DNA from: an uncultured Clostridia bacterium
GTDB lineage: Bacteria > Bacillota > Clostridia > Christensenellales > UBA1242
NCBI GenBank assembly: GCA_944377315.1
Contig: CALWEM010000011.1
Span: 1,897 to 65,896 of the forward strand
Length of the DNA stretch: 64,000 bases
Direction: 5' to 3'
Below the pieces are notes generated by a model that saw only the letters and a program-made list of their open reading frames with translations, did no database searches and was not told where the DNA came from. Shown one piece after another: positions 3,853-20,721 of this stretch; the first letter of the stretch is position 1; every line of letters starts with the position of its first letter. Made by a program: the position numbers and the translations under genes.

Positions 3853-5157
3853 CTATTCAATTGTGAAACCCATTTTGATTTTGTTTTTCTTTTGCTTGGA
3901 CTTGTCTTTGTATTGTTTTTGAACATACTCTCTGTCAATTTCAACAACGGTCATTGGATGTTCGCCAGTGGCATTGAAAGAAATATCTTCCAAAAGAAGT
4001 TCCATTATTGTGTGCAATCTTCTTGCTCCCAAATCTTCCATTTCATTTTCGTTTGCTGCAATTGTGGCGATTTCGTCAAGAGCGTCATCGGTGAATTTGA
4101 GCTCGATATTGTCCACTTTCAAAAGGTTGGCATATTGAACAGTCACTGCATTTTTTGGTGCAGTCAAAATTTTCTTAAAATCTTTTTGCGTCAGGCTTTC
4201 AAGTTCCACACGAATTGGGAAACGCCCTTGAAGTTCAGGTATCATATCTTCCATTTTTGCCAAATGGAAAGCACCGGCAGCGATGAAAAGGATGAAGTCA
4301 GTTTTCACATTGCCATATTTTGTTGGCACGGTGCTTCCTTCAACGATAGGAAGAATATCTCTTTGCACGCCTTCTCTTGAAACATCGGCAGAATTTGTGG
4401 CTTGACTTTTGCCGATAATTTTGTCAACTTCATCAATGAAAATAATCCCCTGTTCTTCGGCAAGAGAAATTGCTTCTTCATTGACATTGTCCATATCAAT
4501 TATTTTGTCAGTTTCTTCTTGAAGAAGAAGGTCGCGTGCGTGACGAACGGTCATTTTCTTTTTCTTATGTCTTGGTGGTTGCAAACTGTCAAACATTGAG
4601 CCCAAATTAATCTCGTTTCCGCTAAATGCCATAATTGGTTTTGGGTTGTCAATCACATTAACTTCAACAATTTCATCTTCACATTTACCACTTTTCAGTT
4701 CGTCCAAAATATCTTCTCTTTTCACTTCCACAGTGGTCACACGGCGATTTTGGAAAAGAGCATCAATAAGTTTTGCTTCCACAATCGGCATAACCTTGTT
4801 TTCAACTTCTTTCTTTTTCTTGTCTTTAACCATTCTCACGGCAACTTCGACAAGGTCGCGAACCATACTTTCAACATCTCTGCCCACATAGCCGACTTCG
4901 GTGTATTTGGTGGCTTCAACTTTGACAAAAGGAGCACCCACGAGTTTGGCAAGACGCCTTGCAATTTCGGTTTTACCAACACCGGTTGGACCTCGCATAA
5001 TGATGTTTTTTGGAGTGATTTCTTCGCGTATTTCAGTTGGAAGGTGTGAACGGCGATATCTATTTCGAAGAGCAACAGCCACCGCGCGTTTAGCCTTGGC
5101 TTGCCCCACAATATATTTGTCAAGTTCGCTGACAATTTGTTTTGGTGTGAAATTCAT
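3853..5157 (-). CDS. hslU: ATP-dependent protease ATPase subunit HslU
   Basis: Walker [16 protein letters not shown], Walker [29 protein letters not shown], and sensor [18 protein letters not shown]. Confidence 0.9.
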
Positions 5158-5198
5158 TTTTATCTCCTTAAAGTAATGTAAGCAAATCGCTTTGAAAT

Positions 5199-5226
5199 AT
5201 TATAGCATAAAAAAGATGAAAAGCAA
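5199..5226 (-). promoter_or_regulatory. Sigma-A-type promoter upstream of hslU
   Basis: Minus strand reads TTGCTT, 16 nt, then TGcTATAAT (extended -10), in the 107-nt topA-hslU gap. Confidence 0.5.
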
Positions 5227-5264
5227 TAGAAAATAAGCAAAATAAAAAGAAAAGAGCAATAAAA

Positions 5265-7337
5265 TTATTGCCCTTCTTTGACATAGTCACACATTGAACA
5301 TTTGATTTTTTTGCCTTTTTTCACGAGATAACCTTCGCAATTTGGACATTTTTCGCCAGTTGGAATATCCCAACTCATAAAATTGCAACCATCTTTGTCT
5401 TCACAGGCATAGAAGGTTTTACCCCTTTTAGATTTCAGTGCAAAGACATTTTTGCCACATTTTGGACATTTACCGACTGGTTTCTTTTCATTTTCCAAAT
5501 TATATGGCATAATATTTCGGCATTTTGGGAAATTGGAACAGCCATAGAATTTGCCATATTTCCCTTCTCGCAAAAGCATTTTATGACCACACTTGTCGCA
5601 GACAATATCAGTTTCAATCGGTTCGGCTTTCATTGTGACGCTTGATGCATCTGCCTTTCCCAAAAGCCCTTTAAAACCATTCCAAAAACTGTCAACGACA
5701 TCGTGCCAATCATCTTTGTTTTCGGCAATATCATCAAGACGATTTTCCATATGTGCAGTGAATTTGACATTGATGACACCGCTGAAAAATTTTTCAAGGT
5801 ATTCGGTTATTCGCTTGCCTAGATCGGTTGGAACAAGATATTTCCCTTCTTTTTCACAATACGCTCTTGCCGTCAAAATTGTGACCGTGGCAGCATAAGT
5901 TGCAGGACGCCCAATCCCCTTTTCTTCCATTGCTTTGACAAGGCTTGCTTCAGTGAATCGAACTGGTGGTTTGGTGAATTTTTGCTCTTCTTTTATTTCT
6001 TTCACCAAGACTGTTTCGTTTTCCGATAAAGGTGGAAGCTTGGAGATTTCTTGCTTTTGCTCTTTATTGTCATCGTCAACATATTCCTTGTATACCGCCG
6101 TGTAACCAGCAAATTCCAAGGTTTTTCCAGTTGCCTTGAAGTTATAATCACACGCGTCAAGTGTGGCGGTGACATTGGAATATTCTGCTTCATTCATTTG
6201 ACTTGCCAAAAAGCGTTCATAGATGAGTTTGTATAGTTTGTAGTTGTCTTTTGACAAACTGTCTTGCACCATTTCTGGCGTTATTTGCATTGATATCGGT
6301 CGGATTGCTTCGTGTGCGTCTTGTGCTGTCTTTTTTGTGGCATATATATTTGGTTTTGCAGGCAAAAACTTTTCGCCATACTTTTCCTTAATAAACTCGC
6401 GACACGCCTTTTGTGCATCTTCTGAAACACGCGTGCTGTCCGTTCTGATGTATGTGATAAGAGCGATTTTGCCTTCACCCTTGACTTCCACACCTTCATA
6501 GAGTTGTTGTGCTGATTCGGTGGTTCTTTTCAAACTCATACCAGCTTTGTTTAAAGCATCTTGTTGCATCGTGCTGGTGGTGAAAGGTGCTGGCGCGTGA
6601 GATTTTGTTTTGGTTTTCTTGATTTGAGAAACGATGAAATCTTTACCCTTAATTTCAGCCAAAACTTTTTCCACTTCTTCTTTGTTTGAAATTTTGATTT
6701 TTTTGTTTTTGTATGCTTGCAAGGTGGATTTGAAAGAAATCTTGTCTTTTTCGTGCTGTGCAGTCACCGTCCAATATTCTTCTGGAACAAAACTCTCAAT
6801 TTCTTTCTCTCTGTCCACAACGAGTTTGAGAGCAACTGATTGCACTCTTCCCGCTGAAAGTTTTGGAGCAACTTTTTTGGAGATAATTGGTGAAAGTTTA
6901 TAGCCCACAATTCTGTCCATAACACGCCTTGCTTGTTGAGCGTTCACAAGATTAAGGTCGATGGCACGCGGACTTTTCAAAGCCTTCAAAACGGCATTTT
7001 TTGAAATTTCATTGAATTGAATACGGCATTTTGTGTTCGGGTCAAGTCCCAGAACATTCGCAATATGCCAAGAAATCGCCTCTCCTTCTCTGTCCGGGTC
7101 GGTTGCGATTAAGACTTCTTCGGCTTTGCCAGCCTTGTTTTTAAGTTCGCTTATGAGTTCTTTTTTGTCCGGTTTATTTTCATAATGTGGCTCATAGTTA
7201 TTGTTCATATCGATTGCGAAAGATTTGACAGGCAAGTCACGAATATGACCTTTTGTGGCAAAAACTTCATAACCAGAGCCAAGATATTTTTTCAATGTTT
7301 CCCTTTTTGCTGGGGCTTCGATAACAACAAGTTTCAA
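5265..7337 (-). CDS. topA: DNA topoisomerase I (type IA)
   Basis: Toprim N-terminus (ATDPDREGEAISWH), YIRTDS active-site Tyr region, and C-terminal C4 zinc-ribbon repeats. Confidence 0.95.
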   Translation of the reverse strand: MKLVVIEAPAKRETLKKYLGSGYEVFATKGHIRDLPVKSFAIDMNNNYEPHYENKPDKKELISELKNKAGKAEEVLIATDPDREGEAISWHIANVLGLDPNTKCRIQFNEISKNAVLKALKSPRAIDLNLVNAQQARRVMDRIVGYKLSPIISKKVAPKLSAGRVQSVALKLVVDREKEIESFVPEEYWTVTAQHEKDKISFKSTLQAYKNKKIKISNKEEVEKVLAEIKGKDFIVSQIKKTKTKSHAPAPFTTSTMQQDALNKAGMSLKRTTESAQQLYEGVEVKGEGKIALITYIRTDSTRVSEDAQKACREFIKEKYGEKFLPAKPNIYATKKTAQDAHEAIRPISMQITPEMVQDSLSKDNYKLYKLIYERFLASQMNEAEYSNVTATLDACDYNFKATGKTLEFAGYTAVYKEYVDDDNKEQKQEISKLPPLSENETVLVKEIKEEQKFTKPPVRFTEASLVKAMEEKGIGRPATYAATVTILTARAYCEKEGKYLVPTDLGKRITEYLEKFFSGVINVKFTAHMENRLDDIAENKDDWHDVVDSFWNGFKGLLGKADASSVTMKAEPIETDIVCDKCGHKMLLREGKYGKFYGCSNFPKCRNIMPYNLENEKKPVGKCPKCGKNVFALKSKRGKTFYACEDKDGCNFMSWDIPTGEKCPNCEGYLVKKGKKIKCSMCDYVKEGQ

Positions 7338-13730: not shown

Positions 13731-14780
13731 CTAATTTTCGTAAAAAGAATTGGTTATCTTAACTTTCTTCGCCACACCTTTTCGCATATCTTCGCCAATC
13801 GCTGCATAGTGTTTTTTCGTTGTGTTGACATCTTTATGCCCCAAAACATCAGCCACAATATATATGTCATTTGTTTCTCGATATAAATTTGTGCCAAAAG
13901 TGGAACGAAGCTTGTGCGGAGAAATTTTTTTGAGCGGATTTGACTCTCTTGCAAACTTTTTCACCAAATTTTCAACTGCACGCGTGCAAATACGCCTGTT
14001 TTGAAGAGAAATGAAAAGAGCCTTTTCATCATCGCCAATCGGCAAAGTTTTTCTTATGTCCAGCCACTCCATAATGGCATATTTGACTTCGTTTGGATAA
14101 TATAAGATTGCTTGGTTTCCGCCTTTTCTTGTCACTTTGAAGGCATTTTGCGTCAAATCAAAATCGTCCACATTGAGTCCAACAAGTTCGCTCACTCTTA
14201 TGCCTGTGCCTAAAAAGAGAGTGACAATGGCATTATCGCGGATTTTGGTGTTTTTGTTATAGTTTTTTTGGCGTTCTGTGAAAGTGGTTGGAGTTTGAAC
14301 AGCGTCCAGCATTCTTTCAACTTCATCGCTTTCAAGACGGATTATTTCCTTGCTGTGCAATTTTGGCGTTGGAACTTTGCTGACAACATTTTTGCTTATT
14401 TTGTCGTGATTGAAAAGGTATTTGAAAAAACTGCGAACACTGGCAAGTTTCCTTGCTTTACCATTTTCAGTGTTACGATAAACCTTGCCGTCAATCTCAT
14501 AGAAAGATAGATACGACAAAAAACTTTCAATGTCGCGGGCTTGCAAATTGTCAAGATCAGAAAGTGAGATAAGTTTCTCATTTTTTTTGAAGACATATTT
14601 TGACAAATAGTCATAAAAAATGGAGATATCCATTGCGTAATTAAGTCGAGTGAGCGAAGAAGTGTTGAGTTCAATCCCAGTGAAAAAATCATAGCAATAG
14701 TCGGGCAAATTTTCAAGATATCCCCCGATTTTTTCCATATTCTTCAAATCACGCTTTTCAAAATATGACAAACTTTTCAT
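13731..14780 (-). CDS. Tyrosine site-specific recombinase, XerS/XerC-like
   Basis: Catalytic signature GTGIRVSELVGL (Arg), HKLRSTFGT (His-x-x-Arg), LGHKDVNTTKKHY (His/Tyr). N-terminal SAM-like domain is laid out as in XerS. Confidence 0.8.
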   Translation of the reverse strand: MKSLSYFEKRDLKNMEKIGGYLENLPDYCYDFFTGIELNTSSLTRLNYAMDISIFYDYLSKYVFKKNEKLISLSDLDNLQARDIESFLSYLSFYEIDGKVYRNTENGKARKLASVRSFFKYLFNHDKISKNVVSKVPTPKLHSKEIIRLESDEVERMLDAVQTPTTFTERQKNYNKNTKIRDNAIVTLFLGTGIRVSELVGLNVDDFDLTQNAFKVTRKGGNQAILYYPNEVKYAIMEWLDIRKTLPIGDDEKALFISLQNRRICTRAVENLVKKFARESNPLKKISPHKLRSTFGTNLYRETNDIYIVADVLGHKDVNTTKKHYAAIGEDMRKGVAKKVKITNSFYEN

Positions 14781-16137: not shown

Positions 16138-16248
16138 CAATTGGCGACTATTATATATATAAATAACTTATAAATAAAACCAAATCCTATTAAAAAATGC
16201 GTATATTAAAATATTTTGTAAAATTTACAAAAAATATGTCGATAACAG

Positions 16249-16277
16249 TTGCATTTATTTTTTATTTGTGATAAAAT
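16249..16277 (+). promoter_or_regulatory. Sigma-A-type promoter of the Rho-like gene
   Basis: TTGCAT, 17 nt, TGaTAAAAT (extended -10). An AAGGAG RBS lies upstream of ATG 16317. Confidence 0.55.
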
Positions 16278-16316
16278 CATCTGCGTAGCGAAAAATTAAT
16301 AAAATAAGGAGTTAAA

Positions 16317-17483
16317 ATGTCTAAAACACAAGTTACTTATGAAAATCTAACAAGAGCACAAGAGAGAAGTTACAACCTTATTGTTGGACTTGGAATCTAT
16401 GAATTGCGTTCCATTGCCAGAGTTTTTGGTGATAATTCTCCAACAACTTCAAAACGCAATGACCACATCAAATTTATTATGGACAAAATCATTTCAGGCG
16501 AAGATTTGCAACCAATTCCAATTCGTCAAGGTCGTCCATACAAAATTTTGTCGAATGTTGAAAGTATTTTGGAAGAATTGTCCGCCATCAATGGCAAAGA
16601 CTACACTCTCAAATCTCTCACAAACAAGCAAAATGACAATGTTCGTGCCATCGGTTTCAGACAAGTGGAAATTGACATTGTCAAACAAAAATTGTTCCCA
16701 ATAAAAGTTAGAGGCGTGGTGATTAATCACAGCGTTAACAATTTTTATTTGACAAGCGAAAACATTGATGTTTTGATTGAGAAAAAGACTTTTCCAAATC
16801 TCGAACAATTCGACTATGTTGAAGGCACAGCCGTTATTATGAACGAAAACAATGAATATATCTTGGACGAAGTGGAAAGAGTGAATTTCACCGACATTCA
16901 AAAATATTCCTCAAAAATTATCTCCCAAGAGTTGGTTTTGCCATCGAAAAAAATATCACTTTCTTCAAAGGAAGCAGTTTTGGGACAAAGATACCTCATT
17001 GGTGCAAGCAAATTGACTGACAATCTTGAAAACTTGAAGAAAATGGTGTCAGAATTCAAGAAGAATAACATCGTGACAATGGCACTTGTTGCAAACACAA
17101 TGTTCGATGACTATCTCCTTCTTCAAAAAGCACAATTTGACAACCTTTGCGTTTTGAAATTTGATGATAAACCAGCTGACTATTCCAAGAAAATTAACAT
17201 TTTCATCAATCAAGTGAAACGCTTGAACGAAATTGGAAAAAGCGTGGCAGTTTTTGTGCAAGACATCGTCACAATCATTCATATTCTCGACTCATATTAT
17301 GATGGTTCAGCGAAAACATATTTCAATCACACTGAAGAAACTGCGAGCCTTGTGAAAGATATCATTATGCTTGCCAAAGCGACTTCATCAATGACCACCA
17401 CACTTTTTGTGACAAATGATGCGACCGACAACAATGACCTATTATATATGACATTTGTCAACAAAGTTTCACACAAATTATAG
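16317..17483 (+). CDS. Rho-like protein with degenerate ATPase motifs (Rho_N-like, OB/CSD-like and RecA-like core; lacks the Rho C-terminal ~70 aa)
   Basis: By-eye colinearity with E. coli Rho. IKVRGVVINH..YVEGTAVIMNENNEYILDEVERVN matches the Rho RNA-binding domain. FDDKPADYSKKINIFINQVKRLNEIGKSVAVFVQDIVTI matches [39 protein letters not shown]. The Walker A position reads GQRYLIGASKLTDNL, with no GKT. Confidence 0.5.
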   Translation: MSKTQVTYENLTRAQERSYNLIVGLGIYELRSIARVFGDNSPTTSKRNDHIKFIMDKIISGEDLQPIPIRQGRPYKILSNVESILEELSAINGKDYTLKSLTNKQNDNVRAIGFRQVEIDIVKQKLFPIKVRGVVINHSVNNFYLTSENIDVLIEKKTFPNLEQFDYVEGTAVIMNENNEYILDEVERVNFTDIQKYSSKIISQELVLPSKKISLSSKEAVLGQRYLIGASKLTDNLENLKKMVSEFKKNNIVTMALVANTMFDDYLLLQKAQFDNLCVLKFDDKPADYSKKINIFINQVKRLNEIGKSVAVFVQDIVTIIHILDSYYDGSAKTYFNHTEETASLVKDIIMLAKATSSMTTTLFVTNDATDNNDLLYMTFVNKVSHKL

Positions 17484-17493
17484 AAAATCGAAA

Positions 17494-17526
17494 AGTTAAA
17501 TCTCAAAAAGATTTGACTTTTTTTTC
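17494..17526 (+). terminator. Rho-independent terminator after the Rho-like gene
   Basis: 9-bp stem AGTTAAATC/GATTTGACT (one G-U pair), 7-nt loop, then an 8-T run. Confidence 0.7.
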
Positions 17527-17556
17527 TTTATTTCATATACTCATATAAGGTGAAAT

Positions 17557-18399
17557 ATGACACTCATTTCAACTGGTTTTGATTTTTTGGGATTGCATAT
17601 AAATTATTATGGATTAATAAGCGCATTGGGATATCTGATGGGCGTGGTTATTGTTTGCCTTGTGGCAAAAAAACGCGGTTTCACCACGGACGACATCATT
17701 CTCCTTGCTTGCTATGTCATTCCACTTGCCATTATTGGTGCAAGATTATACTATGTTCTTTTCTCGCTCGACCAATTCACAAATTTCTGGCAAATTTTTG
17801 AAATTTGGAAAGGTGGACTGGGCTTCTATGGCGGTCTTATCGGCGGAACAGGCGGTGTTATACTCTTTTGTGCAATTCACAAAAAGAATTTTTTGAAACT
17901 CGCTGATATTGTGGTTTTAGGCCTAATTTTCGGGCAAGGAATTGGTCGCTGGGGAAATTATGTCAATCAAGAAGCATTTGGTTTCTATATCACCGATGAA
18001 AATCTTCAATGGTTTCCATTCGGAGTCTATATTGAAAATTGTCATCAGCAAGGTTGTGAATGCCCTGGATACGGCTGGCATCTTGCCACCTTTTTCTATG
18101 AGTTTGTCAATAATATGGTCATCTTCGCCATTTTGACCATTCTTTTATATAAAGTCAACTTCAAAAGTAATGGCATAATCGCAGGATGCTATCTCATTAT
18201 GTATGGCTTCTGCCGTTTTGTGGTGGAAGGCTTAAGAATGGACAGTCTGATGCTTGGACCTTTCAGAATATCACAACTTTTGAGCGTTATTTTCATTATT
18301 GTTGGTGTCACCTACATTGTCACCACATATATCATAAACAAAAGAAAAAAAACCTCGTTTGACATAATTATGGATGTTTTGAAAAATGATTTGAAATAG
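17557..18399 (+). CDS. lgt: Prolipoprotein diacylglyceryl transferase
   Basis: Polytopic membrane protein with Lgt motifs (GARLYYV, WKGGLGFYGGLIGG, GQGIGRWGNYVNQEAFG). Confidence 0.9.
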   Translation: MTLISTGFDFLGLHINYYGLISALGYLMGVVIVCLVAKKRGFTTDDIILLACYVIPLAIIGARLYYVLFSLDQFTNFWQIFEIWKGGLGFYGGLIGGTGGVILFCAIHKKNFLKLADIVVLGLIFGQGIGRWGNYVNQEAFGFYITDENLQWFPFGVYIENCHQQGCECPGYGWHLATFFYEFVNNMVIFAILTILLYKVNFKSNGIIAGCYLIMYGFCRFVVEGLRMDSLMLGPFRISQLLSVIFIIVGVTYIVTTYIINKRKKTSFDIIMDVLKNDLK

Positions 18400-18440
18400 A
18401 ATTTCCACTTTCTCAAAATAAAATCTTAAGATATCACAAA

Positions 18441-18980
18441 TTGAATAAGCCAACAATTTTGAGAAATATTAAATATATGCGTGGAAGAATAAACGGCATC
18501 AAAAAAACATACATTTTGCGAGGACTTTTGGTGTCCTTGTCACTTATATTTCTCATATTTCTTTTTTTTGATATTTTCATCCTGCCTAAAAAGACTCTTT
18601 GGTTTTATTGTTTTTCTCTTTTGTTGGGAATTTATGAAATTTCAAAAAGTCGCCTATTTAAACTCGACAGCGGTTTCTATCTTGGCAATTTTCTCTTTTT
18701 CCTTGGCGTAAGCGGATTTATTTTCACACTAACCAAAACTGCGAACTTTTGGTATTTATATCTCATTTTTGATTTCTTTCTTGCATCCTTTTTCACATTC
18801 ATAGTCTGTGGGCAATATTTTCATCTAATTTTTGATTATTCGCTATTTTTCTTGCTTGTTTTCTCCACTTTTTACACATTTTCCATCATAACATTGGCGA
18901 TTTTTATTGCTTTTTTGGTTACTTTTTTGGTATTATTTATATTGATAATAGTTCTAAACTTTTTAAGGAGGAAAAAATGA
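18441..18980 (+). CDS. Hypothetical polytopic membrane protein
   Basis: ORF rich in Phe/Leu with about 5-6 predicted TM helices. Stop overlaps the next start (ATGA). Start uncertain: TTG 18441 or ATG 18477. Confidence 0.45.
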   Translation: MNKPTILRNIKYMRGRINGIKKTYILRGLLVSLSLIFLIFLFFDIFILPKKTLWFYCFSLLLGIYEISKSRLFKLDSGFYLGNFLFFLGVSGFIFTLTKTANFWYLYLIFDFFLASFFTFIVCGQYFHLIFDYSLFFLLVFSTFYTFSIITLAIFIAFLVTFLVLFILIIVLNFLRRKK

Positions 18981-19687
18981 ATTTTTCTCGCGAATATGAT
19001 GGCTACAAAAAAGATGAAGTGAATGCCTACATAGAAAAATTGAAAGCAACAAGTGAATCCAAACTTATGGAAGAGCGTTTGAAGACTTTGGAAGCCGAAC
19101 GCCGTCTTCTTGATTTACGCAATCAACATCTTGAACTTCGCCACAAAGAAAAAAACATTTTGGAAGCAATTGATGTCATCGAGAAAGCCAAAAAATTCGA
19201 AGAAGAAGGTGCAAAAAGTTTCTATGCCCTTGTTTTTGACAAATTGCAACTTTTGGTGCAAGAGCTTGAAATCAAATTTCCTCACCTTAAAAATGACAAA
19301 GAATATGAAGAAATTTTGAATGAACTCATTTCCGTTATTAATGACTATAAGAACAAATTTTCAGTGGAAGCCAACATCACAAACCCTATCAACTCACCAA
19401 ATGACAGTATGCGCCTACTATTAAACAAAATGCAAGAATACAAAAAAGGTCAAGACTTTCCGCGTGAAATCCATATTTCCACAAATAAGAATGAAGAAGA
19501 TGAAATTCCGCCATATCTTCAATTTTTGCAAGCAAGAGAAGACCGACCATTAAATATTCAGCCAAGCATCCCACAAGATGTGAGTGAAAGCGGTTTCAGT
19601 TTTCAAGAAGCGCTTAATCCAAAAGAAAATTTGGAAGAGATTATGAAGGCTTTTGACTTCTATAACGAAGGCAAGAAAGGCAATTGA
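18977..19687 (+). CDS. DivIVA-domain protein
   Basis: N-terminal FSREYDGYKKDEVNAYIEKL matches the DivIVA F-x-x-x-x-x-GY-x-x-x-EV-x-x-(F/Y) motif, followed by coiled coil. Confidence 0.6.
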   Translation: MNFSREYDGYKKDEVNAYIEKLKATSESKLMEERLKTLEAERRLLDLRNQHLELRHKEKNILEAIDVIEKAKKFEEEGAKSFYALVFDKLQLLVQELEIKFPHLKNDKEYEEILNELISVINDYKNKFSVEANITNPINSPNDSMRLLLNKMQEYKKGQDFPREIHISTNKNEEDEIPPYLQFLQAREDRPLNIQPSIPQDVSESGFSFQEALNPKENLEEIMKAFDFYNEGKKGN

Positions 19688-19752: not shown

Positions 19753-20721
19753 TTAGAAAAATAAAGTTAAAAACATTCCAGACACAACACCGATGAAAAA
19801 TTGAAGGAAAATTATACCCAAACTCTTCAGTGGATGTTTTTTATTTCTTGACACAAGAATGAAAAGACCAACTCCTGCTCCCGTTGTGAGCCCTGCCACA
19901 AGTGCTGGAAAACATAACCCACCTTCAAGGAAAAATTCCACAAGGAAAACACTGGAAGCACAATTTGGAATAAGACCAACCAAACTTGCAATCAAAATTT
20001 GAATGAAAGGATTATTTGTCAAAATTGTTTCAAAAATTTCAATTGAAAAGTAGCCCACCAAAATGTTAATCACAAAAGTTGCCAAAAGGACATAGATCGA
20101 AATTTCAAAAGTGTGCAAAAAAGCATCAAGGAAGATGTTGTCAGCACAATTATCGCCGTGCGTGTGATGGCAATGACTGTCGCACTCTTCGGTGTGAATA
20201 TGTCCGCACTCGTGTTCGTGATGATGCGTGTGCTTTTCTTCTTCAAACGATTTTTCAATTTGCGAAAGACTTTCAAGATTTTTCTCTTCCACTCTTTTTC
20301 TTTTCATTTTTGAGAAAAGTTCCACCACAAAATCAATTCCATATCCCCACAAAAGTGCAAGCACAATTTTGATACCAATCAAGATAAGCATATCCAAAAC
20401 ACTCTCTGGCGTGGAAATCATAATTGGAATTGCCTCGTCCGAAGTCGCCACAAAAACGGCAACTAATGTGCCCAAAGTGACTTTTTGTTTGGAGTATAAG
20501 TCAGCAATAACGGTCGAAAAACCGCACTGTGGAACACAGCCCAAAAAGGATGCATATAAAACGCTTGTGCGCTTTTGCTTGCTCAAAAATCCAGAAAATT
20601 TGTGGTTATGGTCGTGCGAAAGGTATGCAACAAGAAGATATGCCAAAAACAAAATCGGCACCATCTTCAAAACATCTAAAACTGCATCCAAAATTGCATC
20701 ATAAAAAATCTCTTGCCACAT
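19753..20721 (-). CDS. Putative heavy-metal transporter (ArsP_2/DUF2899-like, 10-TM) with a His/Cys-rich loop
   Basis: Motif GCVPQCGFSTV...VFVATSDEAIPI. Central loop KHTHHHEHECGHIHTEECDSHCHHTHGDNC. The family name is recalled from memory. Confidence 0.55.
   Translation of the reverse strand: MWQEIFYDAILDAVLDVLKMVPILFLAYLLVAYLSHDHNHKFSGFLSKQKRTSVLYASFLGCVPQCGFSTVIADLYSKQKVTLGTLVAVFVATSDEAIPIMISTPESVLDMLILIGIKIVLALLWGYGIDFVVELFSKMKRKRVEEKNLESLSQIEKSFEEEKHTHHHEHECGHIHTEECDSHCHHTHGDNCADNIFLDAFLHTFEISIYVLLATFVINILVGYFSIEIFETILTNNPFIQILIASLVGLIPNCASSVFLVEFFLEGGLCFPALVAGLTTGAGVGLFILVSRNKKHPLKSLGIIFLQFFIGVVSGMFLTLFF

Follow-up and report, generated by a model that had tools for sequence, protein, structure and literature searches.

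A probable motor-less descendant of Rho in uncultured gut Clostridia, with a candidate Spo0A box at its promoter

We describe here a gene on a 64,000-nt stretch of DNA from an uncultured Clostridia bacterium (contig CALWEM010000011.1 of assembly GCA_944377315.1; the whole stretch, at its full length, is referred to below as the window). The gene is an intact open reading frame (ORF) at 16317-17483 on the forward strand, starting with ATG and encoding 388 amino acids, exactly as called in the original prediction, which had been made from the letters of the window and had proposed a possible catalytically dead paralog of transcription termination factor Rho. The protein has the domain order of Rho and appears to have lost the residues with which Rho hydrolyzes ATP; the gene carries its own expression signals, including a candidate Spo0A box. 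The features of the locus are the following:

16237-16243 (+), Spo0A-box-like heptamer TGTCGAT, 5 nt upstream of the -35 element, matching TGTCGAA at 6 of 7 positions and keeping G2, C4 and G5.
16249-16277 (+), sigma-A-type promoter: -35 TTGCAT (16249-16254), 17-nt spacer, TG (16269-16270) and -10 TAAAAT (16272-16277).
16306-16311 (+), ribosome-binding site AAGGAG, 5 nt before the ATG, from the sequence.
16317-17483 (+), ORF of the predicted ATPase-dead Rho descendant, 388 amino acids plus stop, based on the ORF list, on profile, hhalign and Foldseek matches to Rho only, and on the ratio of nonsynonymous to synonymous substitution rates (dN/dS).
16353-16496 (+), Rho_N-like helical bundle, amino acids 13-60, LGIYELRSIARVFGDNSPTTSKRNDHIKFIM, with AlphaFold2 helices at 13-23, 27-36 and 47-60 and relatives that match Rho_N.
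16497-16556 (+), near-invariant basic hook, amino acids 61-80, PIPIRQGRPYKIL, containing R-x-G-R-P-x-K, a predicted disordered, AT-hook-like loop.
16557-16691 (+), remainder of the insertion between bundle and OB fold, amino acids 81-125, from the bridged alignment with E. coli Rho, with AlphaFold2 helices at 81-92, 98-103 and 119-123 and low-confidence linkers.
16692-16886 (+), OB fold, homologue of the Rho RNA-binding domain, amino acids 126-190, with five beta-strands within 129-189, colinear with E. coli Rho 52-117.
16950-17480 (+), RecA-like core without the residues for nucleotide hydrolysis, amino acids 212-388, from hhalign, PDB profile alignments and the motif table.
16983-17027 (+), former Walker A, where GQRYLIGASKLTDNL replaces GQRGLIVAPPKAGKT (K184 to N236 and T185 to L237 by hhalign).
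17082-17102 (+), former catalytic Glu and Arg valve segment, where ALVANTM replaces VLLIDER (D210 to N260, E211 to T261, R212 to M262).
17244-17264 (+), Walker B-like strand VAVFVQD, with Q315 at the place of D265 and the nearly invariant D316 next to it.
17490-17526 (+), intrinsic terminator, an AT-rich 14-bp hairpin followed by a U-run, from folding.

Pfam and NCBIfam gave no match to the window protein at E ≤ 10, and a single-sequence phmmer search of the PDB returned Rho only at E 0.77, so that direct assignment to a family failed and profiles and structure were needed. The homologues of about 390 amino acids numbered 156, none of them with a Pfam domain and their names either absent or “hypothetical”; a profile made from 52 of them (clade A1, to which the window belongs) had Rho as its 11 best matches in the PDB (best E 7.6e-4, residues ~245-372 of the window protein against 192-322 of E. 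coli Rho). When the family profile was compared by hhalign with E. coli Rho, using a reference sequence identical to PDB 1PV4 at 419 of 419 residues, the match had an E value of 2.3e-4 and ran over residues 220-367 of the window protein and 168-319 of Rho. An AlphaFold2 model built from the alignment (mean predicted local distance difference test score, pLDDT, 84.9; predicted template modeling score, pTM, 0.69) has a helical bundle at residues 13-60, five OB-like beta-strands at 129-189 and an alpha/beta core at 212-388, and all 50 of its top 50 Foldseek matches in the PDB were Rho chains (E 1e-16 to 1e-13, with up to ~400 aligned columns). A check of this kind by profile and structure had been proposed with the original prediction, and the top matches in both searches were all Rho.

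An exhaustive hidden Markov model (HMM) search of 1.84 billion representative sequences yielded 395 clusters (at 50% identity) with E ≤ 1e-3, and the longer members among them bridge the window protein to Rho. Relative P0204 scores above the Pfam gathering cutoffs for both Rho_N (27.4 bits; cutoff 24.9) and Rho_RNA_bind (35.2 bits; cutoff 27), P0203 does so for Rho_RNA_bind (28.8 against 27 bits) and P0266 for Rho_N (30.4 against 24.9 bits), and P0237, P0251 and P0266 pass Pfam ATP-synt_ab. The NCBIfam equivalog models for Rho match the bridging relatives at E 1e-27 to 1e-53, below their trusted cutoffs (the closest full-length intermediates score 96-180 bits with NF006886, cutoff 315, and 102-179 bits with TIGR00767, cutoff 509), and P0251 is 36% identical to residues 157-363 of E. 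coli Rho. The core of the window protein itself is only ~15% identical to Rho. Profiles, structure and bridging relatives together therefore argue that all three domains are homologous to those of Rho, and they stand in the same order: helix bundle, an insertion of ~65-75 amino acids, OB fold and RecA-like core. The colinearity with Rho, which had been seen by eye, is thus confirmed well beyond chance, and the Rho_N-like helices, the OB segment and the RecA-type core each reappear in the AlphaFold2 structure, in the bridged alignment and as Pfam domains in relatives. Neither PADLOC nor PHROGs gave any match to the window protein, and an origin in a defense system or a phage was rejected on that ground.

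The core differs from Rho at the sites where Rho binds and hydrolyzes ATP. At the former Walker A the absence of Gly-Lys-Thr is upheld by the hhalign alignment, which sets N236 and L237 opposite K184 and T185; in the surrounding segment the family holds G223 invariant and R225 and Y226 nearly so. The pattern [AG]xxxxGK[TS] is absent at the Walker A position from all of the short P-loop-less members, and outside the four P-loop-bearing relatives its few matches fall in other parts of the protein. The second motif had been described as a Walker B LLIDE changed to ALVAN: the replacement stands but the label does not, this being the segment that carries Glu211 and Arg212 in Rho, where Walker B is D265 in VIILLD. 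In the family N260, at the place of D210, is invariant, the E211 column holds V or T and the R212 column M, L or I; the D265 column holds Q, E or H beside the nearly invariant D316, and a register shift of one residue is possible at that point. The R-loop Lys (K326) has become an invariant Asp (D371), the Q-loop Lys (K283) is kept as the nearly invariant K333, T286 is replaced by Tyr, and R173 of the GQR motif is retained. The chain stops at about residue 340-345 of E. coli Rho, without R353, the Arg finger R366 and the last ~75 residues, which agrees with the early end (about 70 residues before the Rho C-terminus) that had been noted.

With the P-loop Lys and Thr, Glu211, the Arg valve, the R-loop Lys, the Arg finger and the C-terminus all missing, RNA translocation coupled to ATP hydrolysis in the manner of Rho should therefore be impossible, and to judge from these alignments a dead ATPase, and with it the idea of a “dead Rho,” is supported. 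The loss extends well beyond the window: GK[ST] survives in only 4 of the ~130 full-length proteins that represent the radiation, with Lys or Gln at the place of Glu211, a few others retain Glu211 and Arg212 without a P-loop, and the full catalytic set was found in none of those inspected. In the OB fold the block alignment, which rests on bridging sequences (the column table puts Y110 one column off), shows two residues of the primary RNA site kept, F64 as Tyr (Y or F in the family) and Y110 as the nearly invariant Y181, and F62, R66, Y80 and E108 replaced; the OB-fold aromatics kept in the window protein are Y144 and Y181.

Pairs of orthologues with unsaturated dS (0.15-0.66) give dN/dS values of 0.036-0.057, and 47 columns are invariant in the 52-sequence family alignment. 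A ratio of 0.04-0.06 is not that of a pseudogene, and the gene, judged by its substitutions, is functional and under strong purifying selection. The constraint is unevenly spread: conservation is 0.93 over amino acids 61-80 (PIPLRQGRPYKELSN), 0.83 in the bundle, 0.61 in the OB fold, 0.59 in the RecA-like core and 0.39 in the interdomain linker. Within the hook G72, R73 and P74 are invariant, and residues 68-78 have pLDDT below 50 in the AlphaFold2 model and are predicted to be disordered, a combination of disorder and top conservation that is typical of a short binding motif. The R-x-G-R-P-x-K pattern recurs across the radiation (for example as KRKGRPYKK), and we take it to resemble the core of an AT-hook. 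The AT-hook signature is a GRP core flanked by basic residues, and “extended AT-hooks” of the GRP type have been reported as RNA binders too. The rest of the insertion (amino acids 81-125) occupies a position equivalent to that of an N-terminal insertion domain in Rho. The insertion with its near-invariant hook, like the Spo0A box in the promoter, is a feature that the original prediction had missed.

The gene seems to be expressed on its own. A strict consensus scan (requiring no fewer than 4 of 6 positions in each hexamer and no fewer than 3 G-C pairs) detected neither promoter nor terminator, and both were assessed instead by alignment and folding. In the upstream alignment the promoter is kept as TTGCTA-17-TGnTATAAT in the closest orthologous loci (L001-L004), and RNA folding gives the terminator hairpin a free energy of -12.6 kcal/mol (z -3.58); a hairpin and U-run, unrelated in sequence, follow the Rho-like gene in 39 of 49 orthologous A1 loci. 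Promoter and terminator are both plausible on these grounds, and the conserved, folding terminator argues that the Rho-like gene is its own transcription unit, so that the promoter, ribosome-binding site and terminator first proposed for it are well founded. A second sigma-A-like promoter match (TTGACT-17-TATACT, 10 of 12 positions) lies at 17513-17541 (+), overlapping the 3′ half of the terminator; it would drive the downstream gene lgt independently.

The A1 clade holds one copy of the gene per genome in 55 species-level genomes (36-66% identity), and a sister clade, A2, has one copy in each of 63 genomes, its core members being ~25% identical to the window protein. The two sets of genomes are disjoint, and all hosts are uncultured gut-metagenome Clostridia, some of them named Candidatus Caccovivens, Catabacter or Christensenella. 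Both clades belong to a radiation of ~395 clusters that are degenerate Rho proteins of Christensenellales-type gut Clostridia. In a scan for a gene of the metallo-beta-lactamase (MBL) fold, a Rho homologue was found directly downstream of it in 58 of the best 80 loci, on which these counts rest, and the near-canonical intermediates P0204 and P0251 each lie directly after such a gene as well. The forms at this position are of two kinds: canonical ones, at 47-55% identity to E. coli Rho and with L[IV]DERP and every motif preserved, and degenerate ones, at 27-38% identity, with the catalytic Glu lost and the P-loop present or absent. Since canonical and degenerate forms share the position after the MBL-fold gene, rho has decayed in place in those lineages. 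The intact Rho of the order also has the N-terminal signature of the window protein, [IL]FELR..AR..GV.SPT..K, together with an RGRP hook, and the best-conserved module of the window protein is therefore inherited from the Rho of its own lineage. Neither the window nor any A1 or A2 locus has the MBL-fold gene that marks the ancestral rho position, and tblastn of E. coli Rho against the locus DNA (0.77 Mb, then 1.53 Mb) found Rho-like genes only and no canonical rho.

Three groups of loci elsewhere in the radiation deserve mention. In L130-L197 the Rho that follows the MBL-fold (Lactamase_B_3) gene is either canonical or decayed, with the P-loop kept and Glu211 lost or with the P-loop lost, and the set forms a natural decay series. 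Loci L127 (GCA_002919055.1, contig PPCM01000005.1) and L128 have a P-loop-less Rho homologue of 449-470 amino acids that keeps Glu211 and Arg212, at the end of a row of sporulation genes (spo0A, veg, a sipL-like gene, spoIIR, sleB and ypeB), a further setting related to sporulation within the radiation. A subgroup of 384 amino acids in L117-L121 (7980-9134), located after scpA-scpB, has GDRGLIVGNKRSRL at the P-loop, with NETPE and a Walker B-like ITDL still present; of the short forms it comes closest to E. coli Rho (E 1e-16).

The core Spo0A box is TGTCGAA, with specific contacts at G2, C4 and G5 (PMC3485338), and the upstream alignment places a perfect copy at the homologous position in L001-L003. 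Of the 55 A1 loci, 29 have a perfect box in the 200 nt that precede the gene (the expectation is 0.035 per 200 nt), and in 27 of the 29 it has the orientation of the gene. Compared with controls, which were other genes of the same loci with an upstream gap of at least 100 nt, the box is strongly enriched (26 of 49 loci against 20 of 292; odds ratio 15, p 1e-13). At most loci of L001-L055 the box precedes the start codon of the orthologue by ~50-145 nt, in one of two fixed arrangements: just upstream of the -35 element (the window, L001-L003, L008 and L014) or, at most other loci, within a spacer flanked by a TTGT.. -35 and an extended -10. In L001 and L002 the -10 is immediately followed by a second box. 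The positions of the spacer and post -10 boxes suggest repression by phosphorylated Spo0A (Spo0A~P). Spo0A genes with DNA-binding domains 81-88% identical are found in several lineages of the radiation, and in B. subtilis a regulatory loop between Rho and Spo0A has been documented (PMC11599450, PMC5540618). The box also occurs in the 200 nt upstream of neighboring genes: in L005, L007, L009 and L011 (the gene at ~4900-5800 that immediately precedes the Rho-like one), of a tyrosine recombinase gene in L034, L036 and L038, and of spoIVB in L001-L003. The control rate of 6.8%, against ~1.8% expected from composition, is consistent with a sizeable Spo0A regulon.

We consider it probable, at roughly 0.7, that the gene is a motor-less descendant of the lineage’s own Rho and that its product is an ATP-independent candidate binding factor controlled by Spo0A. 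The N-terminal bundle and the R-x-G-R-P-x-K hook would be the business end of such a factor, the part that touches nucleic acid or the transcription machinery, with RNA, AT-rich DNA and RNA polymerase as candidate targets. The remaining domains, the OB fold and an inert RecA-like core that keeps its Q-loop Lys, would form a scaffold, probably an oligomerization module and possibly a ring. As growth gives way to sporulation, Spo0A~P would set the level of the protein, with the spacer-located box of most orthologues favoring repression, and the protein would most likely be the remnant of Rho in its clade rather than the helper of an intact Rho. A more far-reaching version holds that, throughout a large clade of gut Clostridia known only as uncultured, the near-universal termination motor was converted and not lost, canonical Rho having been replaced through stepwise decay (Glu211, the Arg finger, the P-loop and the C-terminus) by an ATP-independent, Spo0A-controlled regulator, acting on transcription or RNA, at the growth-to-sporulation switch, with the N-terminal “reader” head and GRP hook kept by strong selection; this we offer tentatively, as a possibility that may well turn out to be wrong.

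Several points weigh against this interpretation. In the window’s clade the gene is away from the MBL position, and the argument from positional orthology is limited to other lineages; the evidence on a canonical rho comes from the locus DNA and from the 120 matches listed for the canonical peptide MEIHLDRKLSE, none of which belongs to the 118 A1 and A2 genomes. The box in the window is itself imperfect, a perfect one is present in only 10 of 50 A2 loci, and Spo0A was not seen in the locus DNA from the window’s clade, where its presence is deduced from spoIVB and from related lineages. The replacement of several primary-site residues makes RNA binding through the OB fold uncertain, and beyond the statement that the protein could not hydrolyze ATP as Rho does, the mechanism is what we infer.

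The alternative closest to the original wording is a genuine paralogue, present alongside an intact Rho, that acts on it as a poison or regulatory subunit in mixed rings or as a competitor for rut RNA or NusG. The RecA-like core, which forms the subunit interfaces of Rho, is retained and conserved, the location beside lgt differs from the MBL-rho position, as would be expected of a relocated duplicate, and Spo0A-dependent expression would time the modulation of termination in a way that fits the B. subtilis loop. However, family patterns found no second Rho homologue in the 118 genomes and none turned up in ~1.5 Mb of locus DNA, the only visible rho has decayed in place in many lineages, and with the core at its low identity and the C-terminal region gone, including the Arg finger that reaches into the ATP site of the neighboring subunit, assembly with Rho looks unlikely. 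The designation “paralog” is thus unproven, and we regard coexistence with an intact Rho as unlikely: the positions in sister lineages point to decay of the lineage’s own rho and not to a side copy, and the continuum of forms together with the single-copy pattern favors the remnant of an only Rho. Somewhat less improbable, though still doubtful, is a protein that mainly binds DNA, as a nucleoid-associated or chromosome-organizing factor with a SAP/LEM-like helix-extension-helix bundle and an AT-hook-like GRP acting on AT-rich DNA. The bundle and the hook are the two best-conserved elements, the genome is AT-rich (36% GC), several residues of the primary RNA site are lost and more distant members adjoin scpA-scpB; yet the intact Rho of the order already possesses both the bundle and the RGRP hook, so that the module fits a role in RNA binding or termination, and the extended AT-hooks mentioned above are said to bind RNA as well.

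Two further explanations have very little room left to them. A divergent but active Rho, hydrolyzing ATP with non-canonical residues, could draw on the retained R173, the Q-loop Lys and the Asp beside the Walker B position, and the Rho of M. tuberculosis, in spite of its weak ATPase, still terminates (PMC8828861). We nevertheless hold it to be very improbable, with a core that has no Gly-Lys-Thr/Ser, catalytic Glu, Arg valve, Arg finger or C-terminal subdomain, and with active-site positions that vary freely among orthologues, unlike those of an active site. That the gene is a functionless relic, a pseudogene in progress, has in its favor only that it evolves faster than its neighbors (within the clade its identity is 44% and that of lgt 60%; between clades the values are 25% and 48%), and is scarcely credible given its low dN/dS of 0.04-0.06, intact full-length ORFs in 118 species-level genomes, a near-invariant N-terminal module and a promoter, regulatory box and terminator that are all conserved.

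Among known systems the nearest is Rho itself (E. coli; PDB 1PV4 and 3ICE; TIGR00767 and NF006886), with which the window protein shares domain order, folds and strand order as well as the Arg of GQR, the FD..P segment, the KRL helix, the Q-loop Lys (K283) and, going by the block alignment, aromatic residues in the places of F64 and Y110; it differs in having no P-loop Lys or Thr, Glu211, Arg212, Lys326, Arg366 or last ~75 residues. As it matches no Rho HMM at E ≤ 10, annotation would never label it as Rho. The intact Rho of Christensenellales type, which has an N-terminal insertion (for example in L130, L146 and L177), shares the N-terminal signature and an RGRP-type hook, and on that sequence likeness such proteins are the probable ancestors; unlike the window protein they have all of the catalytic motifs and the C-terminus, and they follow an MBL-fold gene rather than lying next to lgt. 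The P-loop-bearing degenerate Rho of sister lineages (P0251, P0237 and P0266; L131-L197) has in common with the window protein the signature, the hook, the order-level clade and the trend to decay, but is longer (440-530 amino acids) and keeps GK[ST] and often the C-terminal region, with Gln or Lys at Glu211 and no Arg finger. To judge by these motifs, proteins of this type could still bind nucleotide, which the window protein should be unable to do by way of a P-loop.

A survey of Rho in reference genomes (Nucleic Acids Research, 2024; PMC11347177) used HMM matches to define a “Rho-like” class, in which the N-terminal domain, the RNA-binding domain or both occur but the ATPase does not, and counted it in 421 of 2730 reference genomes; the survey treats the class only in its supplement, also catalogues duplicated and truncated Rho, and cites an earlier Group A/B scheme. 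Relatives P0203 and P0204 would fit the class as there described, but the window protein would not, having no HMM-detectable Rho domain, a full inert RecA-like core and a host among the uncultured genomes outside that survey. The short form of Rho (paralog_Rho2; Group B) lacks the N-terminal domain (PMC11347177). The short form modeled by NF041509, which the window protein does not match, is likewise a non-standard protein derived from Rho, but one that has changed in the opposite direction: in the window protein it is the ATPase that has gone, and the N-terminus remains. The literature searched gave no functional description of such a protein, the nearest being the “Rho-like” sequences of PMC11347177, and no conserved P-loop-less Rho with an inert core, stepwise in-place decay of rho or Spo0A box at a gene of this kind. 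The remark in the original prediction that no example was known accords with this result, and the radiation of motor-less Rho proteins is apparently undescribed.

Rho is among the most conserved bacterial transcription factors, and lineages are usually scored as having it or having lost it. The locus suggests a third state, invisible to annotation, in which the gene is under strong purifying selection and the motor has been dismantled, and this state has been retained in well over a hundred species-level genomes within a radiation of ~395 clusters. If these are the only Rho homologues in their genomes, surveys of Rho misclassify a whole clade of abundant gut Clostridia, some function of the N-terminal half of Rho is separable from translocation and worth keeping alone, and the graded forms, intact at one end and P-loop-less at the other, amount to a natural experiment on how the features of Rho depend on one another. 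Were the conversion described above true, it would be a natural case of a hexameric helicase turned pseudoenzyme, in bacteria that keep a “Rho” without Rho-dependent termination. The conserved Spo0A box ties the Rho-like gene to the Rho-Spo0A circuit of B. subtilis and offers a concrete regulatory hypothesis.

The window has 36% G+C, and its other genes are housekeeping ones (tig, clpP, clpX, topA, ffh, trmD, rplS, nusA, infB, tsf and others). The divergent neighbor of the Rho-like gene is spoIVB, as had been stated (Pfam Peptidase_S55, E 1e-71), and lgt (Pfam LGT, E 1e-63) lies downstream in the same direction. A survey of the linkage to spoIVB, which had been suggested as a check, showed it not to be conserved: spoIVB adjoins the Rho-like gene in L001-L004 alone and is close by in L015 and L021, and as a functional clue the linkage was rejected as incidental. 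The conserved neighbor is lgt. A block made up of the Rho-like gene, lgt, a small membrane protein and a DivIVA-like coiled-coil protein is kept in both A1 and A2 despite the ~25% identity of the Rho-like proteins, and could reflect either function or slow rearrangement. An operon with lgt was not accepted, given the terminator between the two genes in 39 of 49 loci, and the block is treated here as a conserved neighborhood; the Rho-like gene diverges faster than lgt, both within the clade and between clades, at the identities given above.

At 17557-19687 (+) of the window, and in L001-L055 and L059-L108, lgt is followed in the same direction by genes for a multi-pass membrane protein of ~167 amino acids and a coiled-coil protein of ~236 amino acids; neither of these two has a Pfam match, and the coiled-coil protein has a DivIVA-like N-terminus (MNFSREYDGYKKDEVNAYIEKLK). 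A permease of the ArsP_2 type at 19753-20721 (-), with a His/Cys-rich loop (HTHHHEHECGHIHTEECDSHCHHTHGDNC), stays close to the Rho-like gene, a few genes away at most, in both clades: in one it lies downstream on the other strand, and in the second it immediately precedes the Rho-like gene in the same direction (cluster C1 in L059-L116). Finally, a tyrosine recombinase (Phage_integrase with a SAM-like N-terminal domain) is encoded at 13731-14780 (-), with tig on one side and spoIVB on the other; elsewhere in the clade its orientation relative to the neighbors is reversed, a mark of local rearrangement beside the Rho-like gene.

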